Virus record (IMG/VR): IMGVR_UViG_3300017739_000004
Coordinates: 1 to 64,000 of that record
DNA: 64,000 bases
From: a virus
Reading direction: 5' to 3' (one strand)
The notes beneath the pieces were generated by a model that saw nothing but the letters and a program-made list of their open reading frames with translations, had not been told where the DNA came from and did no database searches. The translations under genes were made by a program, and so were the position numbers. This document shows positions 7,970 to 54,064 of the stretch, in pieces (the stretch's first letter is position 1; every line of letters starts with the position of its first letter).

Positions 7970-9021
7970 TGTCAATAATGGATAAATTGAAAAAGAATAG
8001 TAAAGTAAAAAGTACTGATATATTATCAGAATCTATATTATTCGGAGAGAAGGATATGATTCCTACAGATGTGCCTATGGTAAACGTTGCTTTATCAGGA
8101 GATATGGACGGAGGCTTGTCATCAGGTCTTACAGTATTGGCAGGGCCGTCTAAACATTTTAAGACAAGTTTTGCTTTACTTATGGGTTCAGCCTATATGA
8201 AGAAATATCCAGAAGCTGTTATGCTTTTCTATGATTCAGAATTTGGTTCTCCACAGAACTATTTTGAATCTTTTGGTATTGATACAGATAGGGTATTACA
8301 TACACCGATTCAAAACGTTGAGGAATTAAAATTTGACTTAGTTAGCCAATTAGAAAATATTGAAAGGGACGATAAAGTAATTATTGTAATCGATTCAATT
8401 GGTAACTTAGCATCTAAAAAAGAATTAGAAGATGCACTGAATGAAAAATCAGTTGCTGATATGACAAGAGCTAAAGCATTGAAGGGATTGTTCCGTATGG
8501 TCACTCCTTATCTCACTATGAGGAACGTCCCTTTACTTGCTGTCAACCACACCTATCAAGAAATAGGATTATTTCCTAAAGCAATTGTATCAGGTGGTAC
8601 AGGTATTTATTACTCAGCTGATAATATTTGGATTATTGGTAGGCGTCAACAGAAAAAAGGTACTGATGTCACAGGATATCACTTTATAGTTAATGTAGAG
8701 AAATCAAGGTTTGTAAAAGAGAAATCTAAAATACCAGTTGAAGTCACTTGGGAAGGCGGTATCGCATCCTATGGTGGAATACTAGATGTAGCTTTAGCCG
8801 GCGGCTATGTGACCAAACCAAATGTTGGTTGGTACGCAAGAGTTAACAAAGATACAGGTGAAATTGAAGATGGTAAAGTACGAGAAAAAGATACTAAGAC
8901 TAAAGAGTTTTGGGATCCAATCTTTGAAGAAACTGACTTTAAAGAATTTGTAAAATCTTATTATTCTATTGGTCATAAACCATTACTTGACATTGACTTA
9001 GACATAGTAATGGAGGAATAA
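7969..9021 (+). CDS. uvsX: UvsX RecA-like recombinase
   Basis: AGPSKHFKT Walker A, YDSEFG, IDSIGNLAS. Confidence 0.96.
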   Translation: MSIMDKLKKNSKVKSTDILSESILFGEKDMIPTDVPMVNVALSGDMDGGLSSGLTVLAGPSKHFKTSFALLMGSAYMKKYPEAVMLFYDSEFGSPQNYFESFGIDTDRVLHTPIQNVEELKFDLVSQLENIERDDKVIIVIDSIGNLASKKELEDALNEKSVADMTRAKALKGLFRMVTPYLTMRNVPLLAVNHTYQEIGLFPKAIVSGGTGIYYSADNIWIIGRRQQKKGTDVTGYHFIVNVEKSRFVKEKSKIPVEVTWEGGIASYGGILDVALAGGYVTKPNVGWYARVNKDTGEIEDGKVREKDTKTKEFWDPIFEETDFKEFVKSYYSIGHKPLLDIDLDIVMEE

Positions 9022-10958: not shown

Positions 10959-10965
10959 CATATCG

Positions 10966-10989
10966 GGGGAGCGTTCAGCTCCCCACTTT
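10966..10989 (+). terminator. Putative intrinsic terminator
   Basis: GGGGAGC-gttca-GCTCCCC hairpin followed by a short T run. Confidence 0.65.
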
Positions 10990-10991
10990 AA

Positions 10992-11047
10992 TTGTCACAC
11001 AATTGTCACATAAAACCGTTGACATTTTCCTTAAAACATGATACTAT
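10992..11047 (+). promoter_or_regulatory. Early promoter with upstream 11-bp direct repeats
   Basis: GTCACA at 10994 and 11005; TTGACA 11019; TG-n-TACTAT 11042. Confidence 0.85.
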
Positions 11048-11076
11048 AGACATATAAGATTAAATAAGGAGTAAAA

Positions 11077-47028: not shown

Positions 47029-47113
47029 TGTGTGACAGTTGTGTGACAACTGTGTAACAATTGTGTGAATTCTTTAAAAAACCGTTTACAAACCTATCAA
47101 ACTATAGTATAAT
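47029..47113 (+). promoter_or_regulatory. Early promoter with four 11-bp repeats in reverse orientation
   Basis: TGTGAC 47031 and 47042, TGTAAC 47053, TGTGAA 47064; TTTACA 47085, TATAAT 47108. Confidence 0.85.
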
Positions 47114-47141
47114 GGTACTATAATTTAGATAAGGAGAAAAA

Positions 47142-47978: not shown

Positions 47979-48054
47979 TGTGACCAGCCAGTCACAAATT
48001 GTCACACAATTGTCACACAAAACAGTTGACATTTACAGAAAAGCGTGATACTAT
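47979..48054 (+). promoter_or_regulatory. Early promoter with GTCACA repeats and a palindrome
   Basis: TGTGAC-N6-GTCACA; GTCACA at 47991, 48001, 48012; TTGACA 48026; TG-n-TACTAT 48049. Confidence 0.85.
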
Positions 48055-48087
48055 AGACATATAAATTAATAATGATAAGGAGTAAAT

Positions 48088-48234
48088 ATGAGTGATTATT
48101 ATAATAACGACGATATTGTTAGCAGCGTCGATCAATCAAAAGCTGACATCATAAGTAGACTAGACGAAATTGAATCAAGAATTGAAAAGATTTTTGAAAT
48201 CGTTGAAAATATGGAGGCTAATTTAAATGGATAG
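48088..48234 (+). CDS. Small acidic coiled-coil early protein (not in ORF track)
   Basis: TAAGGAGT RBS; MSDYYNNDDIV... Confidence 0.75.
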   Translation: MSDYYNNDDIVSSVDQSKADIISRLDEIESRIEKIFEIVENMEANLNG

Positions 48235-48673
48235 AATAAAATTTGAAAATGTCTCCGAGGACATCTCTTACGCAATAGGCTCTTCTCTTAGAGGCTATAT
48301 TAATGAAGTAACTACAAACCAATTGATTGCAATGTTTGGTGAGCCAAGCAGAGTACCTTCTGGTGATGGTAAAGTCCAACTTGAATGGATTATTAAAACT
48401 AAAGTTATTGAAGAAGATGGCAACGAAATAGATAGTTGCTTTACACTTTACGATTGGAAAGGTTCAGCACCTTCCGATGATAATGCCGAATGGAAAATCA
48501 ATGTTGGTGGTAGATCACAACAAGATTATTGGAATGTATTTGATGCATTTGATATTGCTAACGAAACAGATTTCTTATATGCTTACGATGGTGATGGCAA
48601 ACTATGTCAATCCAAAGAAGGTTTTAGTCTACATCTATTACAGATGTGTAAAGAGGAGGCAGCAAATGGATAG
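48227..48673 (+). CDS. Hypothetical early protein
   Basis: FGEP..GDGKV..EW..FTLYDWK..W.IN.GG; GGAGG RBS. Confidence 0.75.
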   Translation: MDRIKFENVSEDISYAIGSSLRGYINEVTTNQLIAMFGEPSRVPSGDGKVQLEWIIKTKVIEEDGNEIDSCFTLYDWKGSAPSDDNAEWKINVGGRSQQDYWNVFDAFDIANETDFLYAYDGDGKLCQSKEGFSLHLLQMCKEEAANG

Positions 48674-48965
48674 AACAGATTCTTATGTCATGACTGCTTA
48701 TACTGACTCTGCTGGTGATATGTTAGAAATTGAGACAGTCAGAAATACAATAAAGTCAATAAACAAACAAAATGCAAGAGCTGAAAGGTATCATAATAAC
48801 CATCCGATGAGTGATGATATTGTATCTATGCCTAGATATCGTGTTTCATTAAAAGGTAGGTATGGAAGAAATAATCCAAACTATTGTTCATGGAGAGGTA
48901 ATAATGGTAGTGTTCCCTTAGAACATGCAGAAAGAGTGGATGTATATATCCATAGGAGTAATTAA
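48666..48965 (+). CDS. Hypothetical early protein
   Basis: GAGGAGG RBS; YRVSLKGR.G.NNP. Confidence 0.7.
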   Translation: MDRTDSYVMTAYTDSAGDMLEIETVRNTIKSINKQNARAERYHNNHPMSDDIVSMPRYRVSLKGRYGRNNPNYCSWRGNNGSVPLEHAERVDVYIHRSN

Positions 48966-49019
48966 AAATGGTAATGAACTTTGAACACATTGCAACTCGA
49001 ATACCTTTAAATGTAAGAG

Positions 49020-49048
49020 TTGACATGATAAGCTTTATATGTTATAAT
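49020..49048 (+). promoter_or_regulatory. sigma70-type promoter
   Basis: TTGACA-17bp-TATAAT. Confidence 0.8.
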
Positions 49049-49133
49049 ATAGGTTTAAAAAACAAAGCAATTAATAGAGTAATGAAATTTTATGATATTG
49101 ATGAAAATGAATATTTTTACGAAGGAGTGATTT

Positions 49134-49421
49134 ATGGGTAAAGCATTTGATGAAATTAGAGCTCAGTTATTAGCTGAGAAAGAAAAATACGAAGCAGAAA
49201 AAGAATTTAAAGAAACTGTGAGAAGAGTTTATAGTAGACCAAAAGACTATAATAAATTATCTGGTTCTGTGAAAAAAGCAAAACATCTAGCACCTGGTGG
49301 TTTAGATTTACATAAAGACGAGAACAGACATTATTCAAAAGAGAATACAGAAAAATGGTTAGGTTCAACATCTTATATGGAAACATATCAGTCAATGAAG
49401 GAGCAAGACTCATGGGATTAG
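49134..49421 (+). CDS. Hypothetical protein
   Basis: AAGGAG RBS. Confidence 0.7.
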   Translation: MGKAFDEIRAQLLAEKEKYEAEKEFKETVRRVYSRPKDYNKLSGSVKKAKHLAPGGLDLHKDENRHYSKENTEKWLGSTSYMETYQSMKEQDSWD

Positions 49422-49515
49422 GTGCAAGTTTATATGAGGTGTTTCTAGTAATTATAGGAACAGGTTTTTGTACAGCAACTTATGTGGTTGTTGACTATTT
49501 TGTAAATGGTGGTAA

Positions 49516-49722
49516 ATGAGATTATTAGTAGAAAATTATGGTAATGTAAGAGTATTTAAAGATCGCTCTTTAGTAGGATTACCTCGTTATATTATAGAAT
49601 CTATGGATCCCGATTTTGGTTTTAGACATACTAAAGTTTTATCTGGTGTATGGTATAAAAAAGAAAAAGTGTTAGAGATAGCATTGGATATGGCTCAAGA
49701 ATTAGATGGCAGAGAAAAGTAA
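49516..49722 (+). CDS. Hypothetical protein
   Basis: ORF in the early cluster. Confidence 0.55.
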   Translation: MRLLVENYGNVRVFKDRSLVGLPRYIIESMDPDFGFRHTKVLSGVWYKKEKVLEIALDMAQELDGREK

Positions 49723-49841
49723 AGATATAGTTGGTAGTTTACAAAAACAAGCTTGGAGAAGAGCAACACAATTGCCTAAGCCAAATTCAGGTACACCACA
49801 TGATTGGGAAGATTACGAAAAAATGAAAGAGGATAAAAATA

Positions 49842-50135
49842 ATGAGCGAACATAAAGACGCTGTAATAAAACAAGCTAAACTATTATTAGCTGAACAATG
49901 GGCAAATGGAATTACGAATGTCCATGTGTTTGATACTACTAAAGTTCAGATGTGGTACGAGAATATTAATACAGAAAAAGACGGTCGTGTCACAGATATA
50001 ACTTACAACGATGGACGTATTGAAAGATCACAAAATGGAAAAGTGATTAGAACTTTTGGTGAGAAACAATTATGTGGCAATGACTTAATTAATCAATGGG
50101 AGAGATTTGGACCAACAGTTGACATCTCAATTTAA
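49842..50135 (+). CDS. Hypothetical protein
   Basis: GAGG RBS. Confidence 0.65.
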   Translation: MSEHKDAVIKQAKLLLAEQWANGITNVHVFDTTKVQMWYENINTEKDGRVTDITYNDGRIERSQNGKVIRTFGEKQLCGNDLINQWERFGPTVDISI

Positions 50136-50147
50136 CTGTGTTATAAT
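50119..50147 (+). promoter_or_regulatory. sigma70-type promoter
   Basis: TTGACA-17bp-TATAAT with TGTG. Confidence 0.85.
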
Positions 50148-50155
50148 ATAATATT

Positions 50156-50512
50156 ATGGGAATGACTAATTTTTATCAAGGTTCACTGAGGTATTCACCT
50201 TGTGGCCGAAAAAGAAAAAATCACATGGCTAATCCAGTCAAGAAAAAACCAATTCATTTTAAAAAGATGAAAGTTGAAAAGTCAACATTAGATATAATGC
50301 GTAAAGAACAAGCAAAGCAATATAAATCATTAATGGAAGAAGCTATCAAAGATGGTACATGGTTAGATCAGGCAGGTAATACAGCTAAAAAAGAGAATCC
50401 AGTTTATACTGGCACATTAGTAAAAGGTATTGCCACAATGCATAAATCAAATGCTGTTCCAGTTATTAATCAGCAAGAAGCAGAAGATATTGCTAAAATG
50501 AGGAGAGGTTAA
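50156..50512 (+). CDS. Conserved T4-like hypothetical protein
   Basis: YTGTLVKGIATMHKSNAVPV...IAKMRR. Confidence 0.75.
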   Translation: MGMTNFYQGSLRYSPCGRKRKNHMANPVKKKPIHFKKMKVEKSTLDIMRKEQAKQYKSLMEEAIKDGTWLDQAGNTAKKENPVYTGTLVKGIATMHKSNAVPVINQQEAEDIAKMRRG

Positions 50513-50681
50513 TGAAAGAGTTTTGGAAACAGTTTTTTGGTTTTTGGAACAATATTTTCAATTGGTCGTTTAGAGTTTTAATATTATTAATTATTTGTTA
50601 TTTTATATTACATTTAATTAATGGTGGTAATATATGAAAGAGTATCGTCGTGACGACGGTTAAATATCAAATAGGAGTATT

Positions 50682-50888
50682 ATGATAACAGAACAAGGAA
50701 GTAAAAAAGAAATCTCTACGTTTATGAGAGGACCATTGAAGTCAGATTTATTTGAATCAAATGGAGTTTATGGATGTGATTATTACCGAGACGGAGTTTT
50801 GGTTTTAACAGAAATGTATGAAGGTAAAAGCAGACACTATGCACAAGCAGCTGCAGAGAATTACGTAGATGGAATTAAACAAGTTTAG
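50682..50888 (+). CDS. Hypothetical protein
   Basis: AGGAG RBS; KSRHYAQAAAENYV. Confidence 0.7.
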   Translation: MITEQGSKKEISTFMRGPLKSDLFESNGVYGCDYYRDGVLVLTEMYEGKSRHYAQAAAENYVDGIKQV

Positions 50889-50890
50889 AA

Positions 50891-50935
50891 GGTTGACCGG
50901 AGTTTCCAACTCCTTATCATTAGCTTCGGTTAACC
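50891..50935 (+). ncRNA. Hairpin displaying an anti-RBS loop (candidate sRNA or terminator)
   Basis: 12-bp stem with two G:U pairs; loop ACTCCTTATCATTA complementary to 48070-48083. Confidence 0.5.
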
Positions 50936-50948
50936 AATTTTTATATAT

Positions 50949-52091
50949 ATGAGTATGGCAAGAAAAAAGAAAAGAGGACCAACCTTAGAAGATAAGTATT
51001 TAGGACCAGAACCTAATTATGGACCACACAATAACGTTGGTGAAGGCGAAGAAAGACTTAAAGAATATCACAGAGGTGCATCTTGGTTTTATTATTACGA
51101 GAATAGAAAGAAAGCACACAATGCAATATTACACTATGCAAAGCACGATTTAAAATTAACGAATAAAGAACTAGTTAATTTAAATAAAAATCCTGTATGG
51201 AAAATTAATCAAAAAAATTATAAACCAATTGCAATGTATCAAGCAGGCTGGGTTGGAGCTCCTTTAGATTTAGAAGCAGTTAATCAAAGATTACGTGATC
51301 TAGTGAAAAAAGGTGAGAAGATCAAACTACAAAAATTAAAAGAGAGTCCACCAAAGCCTGTCATTACACCACAAGAAAGAACAAGAAAAAAAGTTATAGA
51401 AACAATTTATATGGACTGGGACTCTACAATAGTAGAAGGTTGGTTTGATGAAGATTATACACAAAAGTTTTCTGCCTATAATAGATTTAGAGGTTATGGA
51501 TTAAAAAGTAATTCAATTAATATATTTAAAGCTTTATTAGAACAAGAGTATAATAATATACAAGAGGCTTATAATAGAACTTGCGAGCAATGTGTAGAAG
51601 CCTATTCACATATTACAAAAGGTAATAAAAGAAAAATATTAAAACAATTTGAAGATGTATTTGCTGATTTAGAAAAATTAAGAACATCATTTAAATCAGC
51701 TCGTAAACCAAGAGCACATAAACCAAAAACATCAGACAAACAAGTTGAAAGATTACAATACATGGAAGAAAGTATTGATGATAAACTTGTTTCAATTAAT
51801 CCTGTACTCATACCAAGAAGTCATAAGCTTTTTGTTTATAATACAAAACAAAGAAGATTATTTGAATACAAGACTGAATCAGCTCATGGATTTGAAGTGA
51901 GTGGTACAACAATTAAAAATTTTGATGACGAAAGTAGAGTTGCACTTTTACGCAAACCAGAAGAGATATTACCACAAATTTTAAATAAAACAGAAAAACA
52001 AATTGAAAAGGTTTGGAGTAATATCACAACAAAAATAAATAAACCTACAGGCAGAATCAACTCAGACTGTATTTTATTAAGGGTAATATGA
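50949..52091 (+). CDS. Conserved T4-like hypothetical protein upstream of gene 33
   Basis: EAYSH, LVSINP, VSGTTIKNFD, LRKP, GRIN..ILL. Confidence 0.75.
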   Translation: MSMARKKKRGPTLEDKYLGPEPNYGPHNNVGEGEERLKEYHRGASWFYYYENRKKAHNAILHYAKHDLKLTNKELVNLNKNPVWKINQKNYKPIAMYQAGWVGAPLDLEAVNQRLRDLVKKGEKIKLQKLKESPPKPVITPQERTRKKVIETIYMDWDSTIVEGWFDEDYTQKFSAYNRFRGYGLKSNSINIFKALLEQEYNNIQEAYNRTCEQCVEAYSHITKGNKRKILKQFEDVFADLEKLRTSFKSARKPRAHKPKTSDKQVERLQYMEESIDDKLVSINPVLIPRSHKLFVYNTKQRRLFEYKTESAHGFEVSGTTIKNFDDESRVALLRKPEEILPQILNKTEKQIEKVWSNITTKINKPTGRINSDCILLRVI

Positions 52092-52330
52092 CAGAAATAA
52101 TTGAAGAAAAAATAATGACTAAAAAAAGATTTTCACTTGCAGTTGAGAGTTTAGTATCTAGTCATAAAATGAATTATATAGATGCAGCTGCGCATGTAGT
52201 TCAAGAAAGAGGATTAGATTACAGGTCTATGAAAAGACTTATGACAGATTCTCTAAAAGCAAAAATAGAAGCAGAAGCTAAAAGCTTAAATTTATTAAGA
52301 GTAAAAAAAACTAATAAATTACCAGTATGA
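52088..52330 (+). CDS. 33: Late transcription coactivator gp33
   Basis: FS..VE..V..MNYIDA..LKAKIEAEA..LNLL; synteny 33-59-32. Confidence 0.88.
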   Translation: MTEIIEEKIMTKKRFSLAVESLVSSHKMNYIDAAAHVVQERGLDYRSMKRLMTDSLKAKIEAEAKSLNLLRVKKTNKLPV

Positions 52331-52496: not shown

Positions 52497-53090
52497 ATGA
52501 AAGACCCTTTTGATTCTTACAAATTATATAATTCGTTAAAATTACATTTTGAAACTGATAATTATGATGCGATTAAATATAATTTTAAAACTTCAGTTAA
52601 ACCTACTTCTTTCTTTAAAAGAAAAGATAAATATTTTTTTGCAAAGTTAGCAAATACATACGATGATCTCTTAGATTTCTATGTTGCTAATTTCAAAAAT
52701 GATGTTAAGTATGTCGGTGATATGCTTAACGAACATGGCGAACGATATTATCGTGAGCATAAAAAGGTATGTGAAAGTTTAACATATACTTTTGAAAATG
52801 ATATAAATAAATTATACGAAAGTAATTCTGATTTTAATGCTTTATTAGAAGCAAAAGATAATGAACATCCTTTCGTAATAACTTATTGGCTTCAAGATGA
52901 AATACACTTAGAAACTGTAGTAATCTTGGATGCAATAACCGGGTTTATAAATCGTGAGAATAAAAAGATTTCTGAAACAATTATTTGGCCAGATATCTTT
53001 AGAAAGATTACGAAATATAAACCTTTCGTAAAGTTCGATAAAACTAAATGTGTAAATATTTTGAAAAAGACCTTTACAAAGACACAGTAA
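52497..53090 (+). CDS. 59: Helicase loader gp59
   Basis: LKLHF..YD..KY, F.KRKDKYFF.KL, ETVVILD. Confidence 0.9.
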   Translation: MKDPFDSYKLYNSLKLHFETDNYDAIKYNFKTSVKPTSFFKRKDKYFFAKLANTYDDLLDFYVANFKNDVKYVGDMLNEHGERYYREHKKVCESLTYTFENDINKLYESNSDFNALLEAKDNEHPFVITYWLQDEIHLETVVILDAITGFINRENKKISETIIWPDIFRKITKYKPFVKFDKTKCVNILKKTFTKTQ

Positions 53091-53158: not shown

Positions 53159-54064
53159 ATGTCGTTAGATAATTTAAAGAGTATGCGAGGCTCATCAATA
53201 GATAAACTCGTTAAGGCAGCAGAAGCTGTATCCACAAGTAAACCAGAAACTACTTCTTATGAAGATACTAGATTCTGGAAACCTACTAGAGATAAAGCAG
53301 GAAACGGATATGCCGTGATTAGATTCTTACCTGCCAAAGAAGGCGAAGACCTTCCTTGGGTGAGATATTGGGACCATGGCTTTAAGGGACCTACTGGACT
53401 ATGGTATATAGAAAACTCATTAACCTCTATTGGTCAACAAGACCCAGTATCAGAAGCTAATTCTGTTTTATGGAATACAGGTAGAGACGAGGATAAAGCT
53501 TTAGCTAGAGAAAGAAAGAGAAGATTACATTACGTAAGTAATATTCTTGTTATTTCTGATCCAGATAATCCACAAAATGAAGGGAAAGTTTTCCTTTATA
53601 AGTTTGGTAAGAAAATATTTGATAAGATCATGGATGTTATGCAACCACAATTTGCAGATGAAACACCTATTAACCCTTATGATTTTTGGGAAGGTGCCGA
53701 TTTTAAAATTAAGATCAGAAAGGTCGAAGGTTGGGTAAACTATGATAAATCAGAATTCAGTAAAGCATCTGCTTTATTTGAAAGTGATGAAGCAAGATTG
53801 CAAGAGACATACGATCAATTGCATGCCTTATCAGAATTTACTGATGCCGCAAACTATAAATCTTATGATGAACTTAAGGCTAAGTTTAATAGAGTACTAG
53901 GAATTGATGCGGGTGTAGCAATGGATGCACCAGTTATGGAATCTGCAGAACCAGCTTCTCAACCAGCAGTTGATAATTCACCTGTAATTGATACACCAAC
54001 AGACGATGGTGGATCGGAAGAAGAAGATACACTTAGTTATTTTGCTAAATTAGCGAATGAATAG
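53159..54064 (+). CDS. 32: ssDNA-binding protein gp32
   Basis: DKAGNGYAVIRFLP, WYIENSLT, KFGKKIFDKI, NYDKSEF, acidic tail. Confidence 0.96.
   Translation: MSLDNLKSMRGSSIDKLVKAAEAVSTSKPETTSYEDTRFWKPTRDKAGNGYAVIRFLPAKEGEDLPWVRYWDHGFKGPTGLWYIENSLTSIGQQDPVSEANSVLWNTGRDEDKALARERKRRLHYVSNILVISDPDNPQNEGKVFLYKFGKKIFDKIMDVMQPQFADETPINPYDFWEGADFKIKIRKVEGWVNYDKSEFSKASALFESDEARLQETYDQLHALSEFTDAANYKSYDELKAKFNRVLGIDAGVAMDAPVMESAEPASQPAVDNSPVIDTPTDDGGSEEEDTLSYFAKLANE

Follow-up and report, generated by a model that had tools for sequence, protein, structure and literature searches.

The small RNAs that enterobacteria derive from 3'-UTRs, such as CpxQ, SroC, and DapZ, share the 3' end and the terminator of an mRNA and pair with ribosome-binding sites (RBSs) in trans; their seed is usually single-stranded, lies upstream of the terminator hairpin, and is Hfq-dependent. 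Among phages, the c4 RNA of P1 and P7 has loops that pair with the ribosome-binding region of its target, with loop and target varying in step from one related phage to another. Pairing of this kind can also take place between the two ends of an mRNA. In Bacillus subtilis, 8-mers that resemble the anti-Shine-Dalgarno (anti-SD) sequence and lie far downstream in the mRNA pair with the RBS, block translation, and promote decay (PMC12697547), and the same pairing and block are found for the 3'-UTR of icaR in Staphylococcus aureus (PMC3868564). A survey of pelagimyophages (PMC7029224) makes no mention of a hairpin element such as the one presented here.

The locus in question belongs to an uncultured virus with a record of 102,948 bp, and its first 64 kb are the window, that is, the whole stretch of DNA that was analyzed. 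The virus is a marine T4-like phage and encodes gp33 (52088-52330), the helicase loader gp59 (52497-53090), and gp32 (53159-54064) in the window; in gp32 its closest cultured counterparts are C48C1 and Pelagibacter phage HTVC008M, each 55% identical. At the border between the early gene cluster and the gp33-gp59-gp32 module we find a conserved RNA hairpin (50891-50935, + strand), recognized by its fold, by a covariance model, and by covariation of its stem. The stop codon of the last gene of the early operon (50682-50888, + strand, 68 aa) is 2 nt away on the 5' side, and a 380-aa gene of unknown function (phrog_11903; 50955-52091, + strand, with a frame open from 50949) follows on the 3' side. 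In other clades the Shine-Dalgarno sequence of this 380-aa gene is complementary to the loop over 7-8 nt. In the clade of the window the gene has no Shine-Dalgarno sequence: positions 50936-50957 lack the strong one seen in clades B, D, E, and H, and no promoter is recognizable past the hairpin.

The core of the hairpin is formed by 50891-50902 pairing with 50924-50935. The minimum-energy fold lengthens this stem to 14 pairs (50891-50904/50922-50935), three of them G:U, around an open loop of 17 nt (50905-50921) with a predicted unpaired probability of at least 0.97. An initial sequence-only reading had described this stem, with all coordinates correct, and had noted that it favors the plus strand, which the energies bear out: the + strand folds at -19.9 kcal/mol (z -4.24, equaled by 0 of 200 shuffles) versus -12.3 kcal/mol (z -1.45) for the - strand, which has no comparable fold. 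Within the hairpin, the segment complementary to early leaders (50909-50922, + strand) consists of an extended anti-SD core and a clade-specific 3' extension. The same reading had proposed that an alternative hairpin at 50899-50913 hides this segment and makes the element switchable. The alternative helix exists, but the main fold is better by 4.5 kcal/mol than the best structure containing this helix, which is confined to the window's own clade, so we have dropped it as a conserved switch. A promoter-like TTGACC-16-TATCAT within the hairpin was likewise discarded, since it is made of clade-specific stem sequence and is unconserved. Searching 50600-51100 with the Rfam 15 covariance models gave nothing at E up to 10, the c4 antisense RNA (RF01695) included, and in the whole window only a tRNA reached the gathering score. 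The hairpin is an uncatalogued, structurally conserved RNA, absent from the catalogued families.

The early operon that ends at the hairpin is driven by a sigma70-type early promoter (48026-48054, + strand), which reads TTGACA(48026)-17-TACTAT(48054) with a TG. Some ten small genes make up the operon body (48088-50888, + strand), inside which there are two further sigma70 promoters, both perfect, at 49020-49048 and 50119-50147, and no strong terminator was found within 48088-50891. The main candidate target of the loop lies at the first cistron, in its leader and Shine-Dalgarno region (48070-48083, + strand); it is a perfect 14-nt complement, is located 5 nt before the ATG at 48088, and is predicted to be unstructured. 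Two further early leaders contain a 9-nt complement of the loop, one at 47128-47136 (+ strand; promoter 47085-47113, ATG 47142) and the other at 11064-11072 (+ strand; promoter 11019-11047, ATG 11077). The latter is 40 kb from the hairpin and could therefore be reached by the loop in trans only. The first reading had assigned the 14-nt match to the RBS of the first gene behind an early promoter and the two 9-nt matches to equivalent sites, and we can confirm that all three are first RBSs behind early promoters.

Several other features of this region are worth recording. Just upstream of the -35 element of the three leader-bearing promoters are arrays of TGTCACA-like repeats (10965-11015, 47029-47075, and 47985-48019), which may be operator sites; they are oppositely oriented at 47.0 versus 48.0 kb, and a GGGGAGC/GCTCCCC hairpin (10965-10985) precedes the array in the first case. 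A partial leader motif is found inside early-promoter spacers, as TGATAAG at 49020-49048 and as TGATAAGGA in a related locus (L025:3940-3970), where it would not be transcribed from the promoter in question. At 50119-50158, a perfect sigma70 promoter (TTGACA-17-TATAAT with TG) stands 8 nt before the ATG (50156) of a 118-aa gene without a Shine-Dalgarno sequence, and the mRNA of this gene is probably leaderless. The 118-aa protein is kept at 64-81% identity in every clade. Its C-terminal 45 residues turn up again in roughly 600 or more contigs of viral and metagenome origin. The 48-aa first gene (48088-48234) resembles an N-terminal coiled-coil extension that is fused elsewhere to the last gene, of the 68-aa family (L017:2738-3025 and the last genes of L009, L025, L033, and L036; pairwise E 9e-7 over 28 residues), which suggests that domains have been shuffled from one end of the operon to the other. 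The 68-aa protein, encoded 5' of the hairpin in every case, is modeled with a pLDDT of 90 as a four-stranded antiparallel sheet with a C-terminal helix; it has no PDB match at E 0.001, no Pfam or PHROG family, and no sign of RNA binding.

How much weight should be placed on a 14-nt match? The 14-mer at 50909-50922 has, as had been claimed for it, a single exact reverse-complement match in the window, at 48070-48083. The window contains 61 exact 14-nt inverted pairs, however, so this match alone is unremarkable and its significance comes from the relatives; similarly, as many matches at ≤2 mismatches were obtained in 14 of 100 shuffles. A duplex scan of the full genome, suggested in the sequence-only reading as a check, did recover 48070-48083, but in second place, the top rank going to a hit in a coding region. 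On the coding strand of the whole 103-kb record, the 9-nt leader motif occurs at 47128 and 48074 only and its 8-nt core also at 11064, and all three sites are early leaders. Two or three motif leaders are likewise present in several related loci. The genes behind them fall into at least four unrelated families across clades, and since the motif is kept where the first genes are unrelated, it belongs to the leader and not to the gene. The flanks of other RBSs in the same loci are unconstrained. The leaders, like the loop, are predicted to be single-stranded.

Related loci were gathered through the 380-aa neighbor (47 loci) and through the conserved 118-aa early protein, which added 80 from viral contigs and another 80 from metagenomes. 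A single hairpin in the same place is present in each of more than 60 related marine phage contigs. Our covariance model (R1) detected the hairpin once per locus and without exception on the gene strand, in a set of 41 loci and then in one of 26, and a single copy was also found in each of five records of 44-128 kb. Where the neighbor protein is 48-59% identical, the loop core is nearly unchanged and the stem sequences are wholly different yet paired, with compensatory changes in 9 of 11 stem pairs. Plain MAFFT alignment followed by RNAalifold misaligned the stems and left the consensus almost empty; stem covariation was scored on the covariance-model alignment. It amounted to 0.519 versus 0.264 shuffled in the first set and to 0.616 versus 0.263 in an independent second set; none of 500 shuffles reached the observed value in either, and slid controls gave 0.10-0.24. 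About one in eight stem cells is a G:U pair, many of which would be A-C mismatches on the other strand, and from this it follows that the folding strand is the + strand RNA. The leader motif follows the hairpin: in 109 loci of the hairpin clade the 9-nt motif is found 64 (+) and 84 (-) times, against 1 and 5 in 96 more distant, hairpin-free loci.

Some observations come from beyond these clades. In a more distant phage, whose 118-aa protein is 47% identical (L159:800-960), a small hairpin with the same loop core is present about 100 nt upstream of an early promoter with a matching leader motif, giving the order hairpin, promoter, leader. Cultured Pelagibacter phage HTVC008M has neither a match to the hairpin model nor a homologue of the 380-aa gene. 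In cultured Phage C48C1, the 13 kb examined contain no such loop and no complementary hairpin loop; a different repeated early leader, GAGTTGAGAGAG-rich, stands there behind two sigma70 promoters (L208:6100-6150 and 8830-8880). A DNA search of cultured phages with two 1-kb stretches returned no match. Four marine RNA-library runs, two of which may be DNA, yielded short, near-identical contigs of the early region at a depth of 2-9.

The partner of the loop was sought in the 4 kb upstream of the hairpin. In 19 of 20 loci whose upstream sequence reaches 2.6 kb or more, the loop has its longest complement at the first RBS behind a strong TTTACA/TTGACA-17-TATAAT promoter, with 10-15 nt of pairing across a distance of 2.6-3.1 kb (L016 is the exception), and new lineages have the same kind of leader partner 1.8-3.9 kb upstream. 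A base-pairing anti-SD regulator should offer accessible complementarity to the Shine-Dalgarno region of its target and should co-vary with it. Here the complementarity, predicted to be accessible, is 10-15 nt in all clades, and loop and leader do co-vary, L016 and L029 excepted. Three differing 3' extensions of the loop are each matched by their own leader, over 14 nt in the window, 15 nt in L011, and 14 nt in L074. In L057/L058, L140/L145, L075, L077, and L132, the upstream part is gone from both loop and leader, and new pairs are formed on the opposite side of the Shine-Dalgarno core, which in L075 extend to the start codon. Single changes are also matched: an extra loop A in L077 relative to L075 by an extra leader U, and an A-to-U change in the loop of L020 by U-to-A in its leader, while an A-to-G change in the loop of L071 keeps the pair as G:U.

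These pairings were evaluated by permutation with 17 clade representatives, near-duplicates being left out. Each loop was paired in turn with the best candidate site from every locus and scored, a symmetric procedure that treats cognate and non-cognate loci alike. Cognate pairs averaged 11.65 nt versus 10.45 +/- 0.25 when permuted (p about 2.5e-5), and duplex energy was -17.4 versus -16.0 kcal/mol (p about 6e-4); both p values are optimistic because the clades are related. It is important to remember that the core pairing is almost invariant, so that covariation can be read only from the flanks and from a limited set of events. Some non-cognate combinations of loop and leader score equal to cognate ones. 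In L016, L054, and L055 a changed first leader faces an unchanged loop, which finds its best partners in other leaders (10 and 9 nt); L029 has a variant loop that brings pairing down to 9 nt. Taken with the joint retention of loop and leader across very divergent relatives, the covarying flanking pairs uphold the original proposal that the loop is the antisense partner of early-gene RBSs. Covariation of loop and RBS in relatives was the check that the sequence-only reading had named for itself, and the outcome is in its favor. The flanking pairs speak against its companion, a decoy resembling the 16S anti-SD, because they fall outside the Shine-Dalgarno core.

The interpretation that we favor, with some confidence, is that the hairpin is an anti-leader RNA at the 3' end of the operon that occludes early RBSs and so limits early translation. 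Early transcripts would run on into the hairpin, whose G+C-rich stem would hold open a loop of 17-23 nt with an extended anti-SD sequence at its core. The loop would then pair over 10-15 nt with the unstructured leader and RBS of the first cistron behind sigma70-type early promoters. With the Shine-Dalgarno sequence covered in this way, 30S binding should be blocked and the mRNA exposed to decay; early translation would thus become limited once the hairpin-bearing RNA has been made. Such action might occur in cis, by 5'/3' pairing within one read-through transcript of 2-4 kb, in trans from accumulating 3' ends, or in both ways. We infer that loop and leader are present as RNA simultaneously and that their pairing represses. 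The distance of 2-4 kb between loop and leader far exceeds the few hundred nt tried experimentally in known cases, and this counts against an anti-leader role. More tentatively, and with the odds somewhat against it, the hairpin could be released or accumulate as a stable 3'-end RNA that acts in trans on all early leaders, serving as an RNA-only timer of early shut-off. Overall, the comparative sequence data suggest an RNA-based brake on early protein synthesis of a kind undescribed for the marine T4-like phage group.

Could the hairpin owe its conservation to something other than the leaders? It might be a terminator or a 3'-end stabilizer, with a loop conserved for another ligand such as a phage or host RNA-binding protein or a nuclease, and with a complementarity to leaders that merely reflects its likeness to the 16S anti-SD and the strength of the leaders as Shine-Dalgarno sites. 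The position directly after a stop codon, at the border of the early cluster and the gp33-gp59-gp32 module, is in keeping with this, and the loop core is one position off the canonical bacterial 16S 3' end. A run of five T (50938-50942, + strand) begins 2 nt past the stem and resembles the tail of an intrinsic terminator; a G+C-rich stem followed by a U run is a terminator feature that about half of the clades have (the window and clades A, B, E, F, and G), and on the anti-leader reading, too, the hairpin may terminate transcription. The U run is absent from clades C, D, and H and from L034, L057, and L074, however, and the loop, at 17-23 nt in all clades, is atypical of an intrinsic terminator, where 3-8 nt would be expected; it is because of this loop size that a consensus terminator scan omits the hairpin. 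Some read-through is also to be expected, as the downstream gene has no promoter or Shine-Dalgarno sequence of its own in the window clade. The complementarity exceeds the Shine-Dalgarno core on both sides with flanks that covary between clades, a pattern expected neither from a fixed 16S tail nor from a protein site, and the leader motif is all but missing where the hairpin is missing. We regard an explanation by terminator and ligand as unlikely.

Less likely still is a purely local role, in which the loop would act on the Shine-Dalgarno sequence of the next downstream gene in read-through transcripts. A precedent exists in T4, where genes e, soc, 49, and I-TevI yield protein only from transcripts of their own proximal promoter (PMC3014915), and clades B, D, E, and H together with L159 have a 7-9 nt complement of the loop either at the next gene or at a promoter with its leader 60-100 nt downstream. 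The window clade, however, keeps the loop without a downstream Shine-Dalgarno sequence, clade C has another gene between the hairpin and the 380-aa gene, and it is the upstream leaders, not the downstream site, that provide the longer, covarying matches. Finally, the same double-stranded motif occurs in opposite orientations around a variable gene cassette, as it would if loop and leader were an inverted repeat working as DNA, with a protein binding to each copy or with recombination or inversion taking place at the borders of the early cluster; the window's first gene is akin to the N-terminal portion of the gene that comes last in other clades, which hints at shuffling. We consider this highly improbable. 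One copy always sits in a hairpin loop above a covarying stem with G:U on one strand only, the loop change in L071 keeps pairing only as G:U, the segment is inverted in no contig examined, 10-15 bp is short for recombination, and several matching leaders occur per genome, one of them 40 kb off.

What, then, does an anti-leader hairpin contribute? The element is found in dozens of marine-metagenome contigs, and comparative sequence evidence names early-gene leaders as its partner. If confirmed, it would show how the early program is timed in abundant ocean phages, for which a SAR11 phage is among the closest cultured relatives by gp32, and it would extend anti-SD control, whether by 5'/3' pairing or by 3'-end-derived RNA, to multi-kilobase phage operons. 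Should shut-off in trans prove true, the hairpin would rank as the T4 superfamily's first base-pairing regulatory RNA and as a functional substitute for RegB. The naturally matched variants of loop and leader are ready-made compensatory controls.

The outcome proposed here is that of T4 RegB, namely selective inactivation of early mRNAs at GGAG ribosome-binding sites (PMC3014915), where the agent is a protein nuclease and not an RNA hairpin; a Pfam search for RegB and RegA in the 103-kb record, which is 61% complete, was empty, and control genomes were silent too. The PeSL cassettes of RB49 and phi1 are alike in bringing together a stem-loop, a sigma70 early promoter, and a Shine-Dalgarno sequence in plastic early regions of T4-type phages, and the order hairpin, promoter, leader in clade E and L159 resembles their arrangement. 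PeSLs number about 50 per genome, have GGGG...CCCC stems, and no conserved anti-leader loop has been described for them (PMC2839356), whereas our hairpin has one copy per record (five records, 44-128 kb) and, in the window clade, no adjacent promoter.

The c4 antisense RNA of phages P1 and P7 (RF01695; Citron and Schuster 1990 as cited in PMC2864571) is also a phage RNA that shares an operon with its target. It lies upstream of the target, is released by RNase P cleavage, and regulates an antirepressor in temperate phages. The hairpin described here has no sequence or structure match to RF01695 and belongs to lytic T4-like phages, where it closes an operon at the 3' end. It differs from the 3'-UTR-derived small RNAs in that the seed is the terminal hairpin loop itself. 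With icaR it would share the principle, a pyrimidine-rich anti-SD motif at the 3' end that pairs with the 5' Shine-Dalgarno region and blocks initiation. icaR is a monocistronic host gene with one target, for which cleavage by RNase III has been demonstrated (PMC3868564); the phage element belongs to a polycistronic operon of 2-4 kb and carries its motif in a conserved hairpin loop that matches several leaders.
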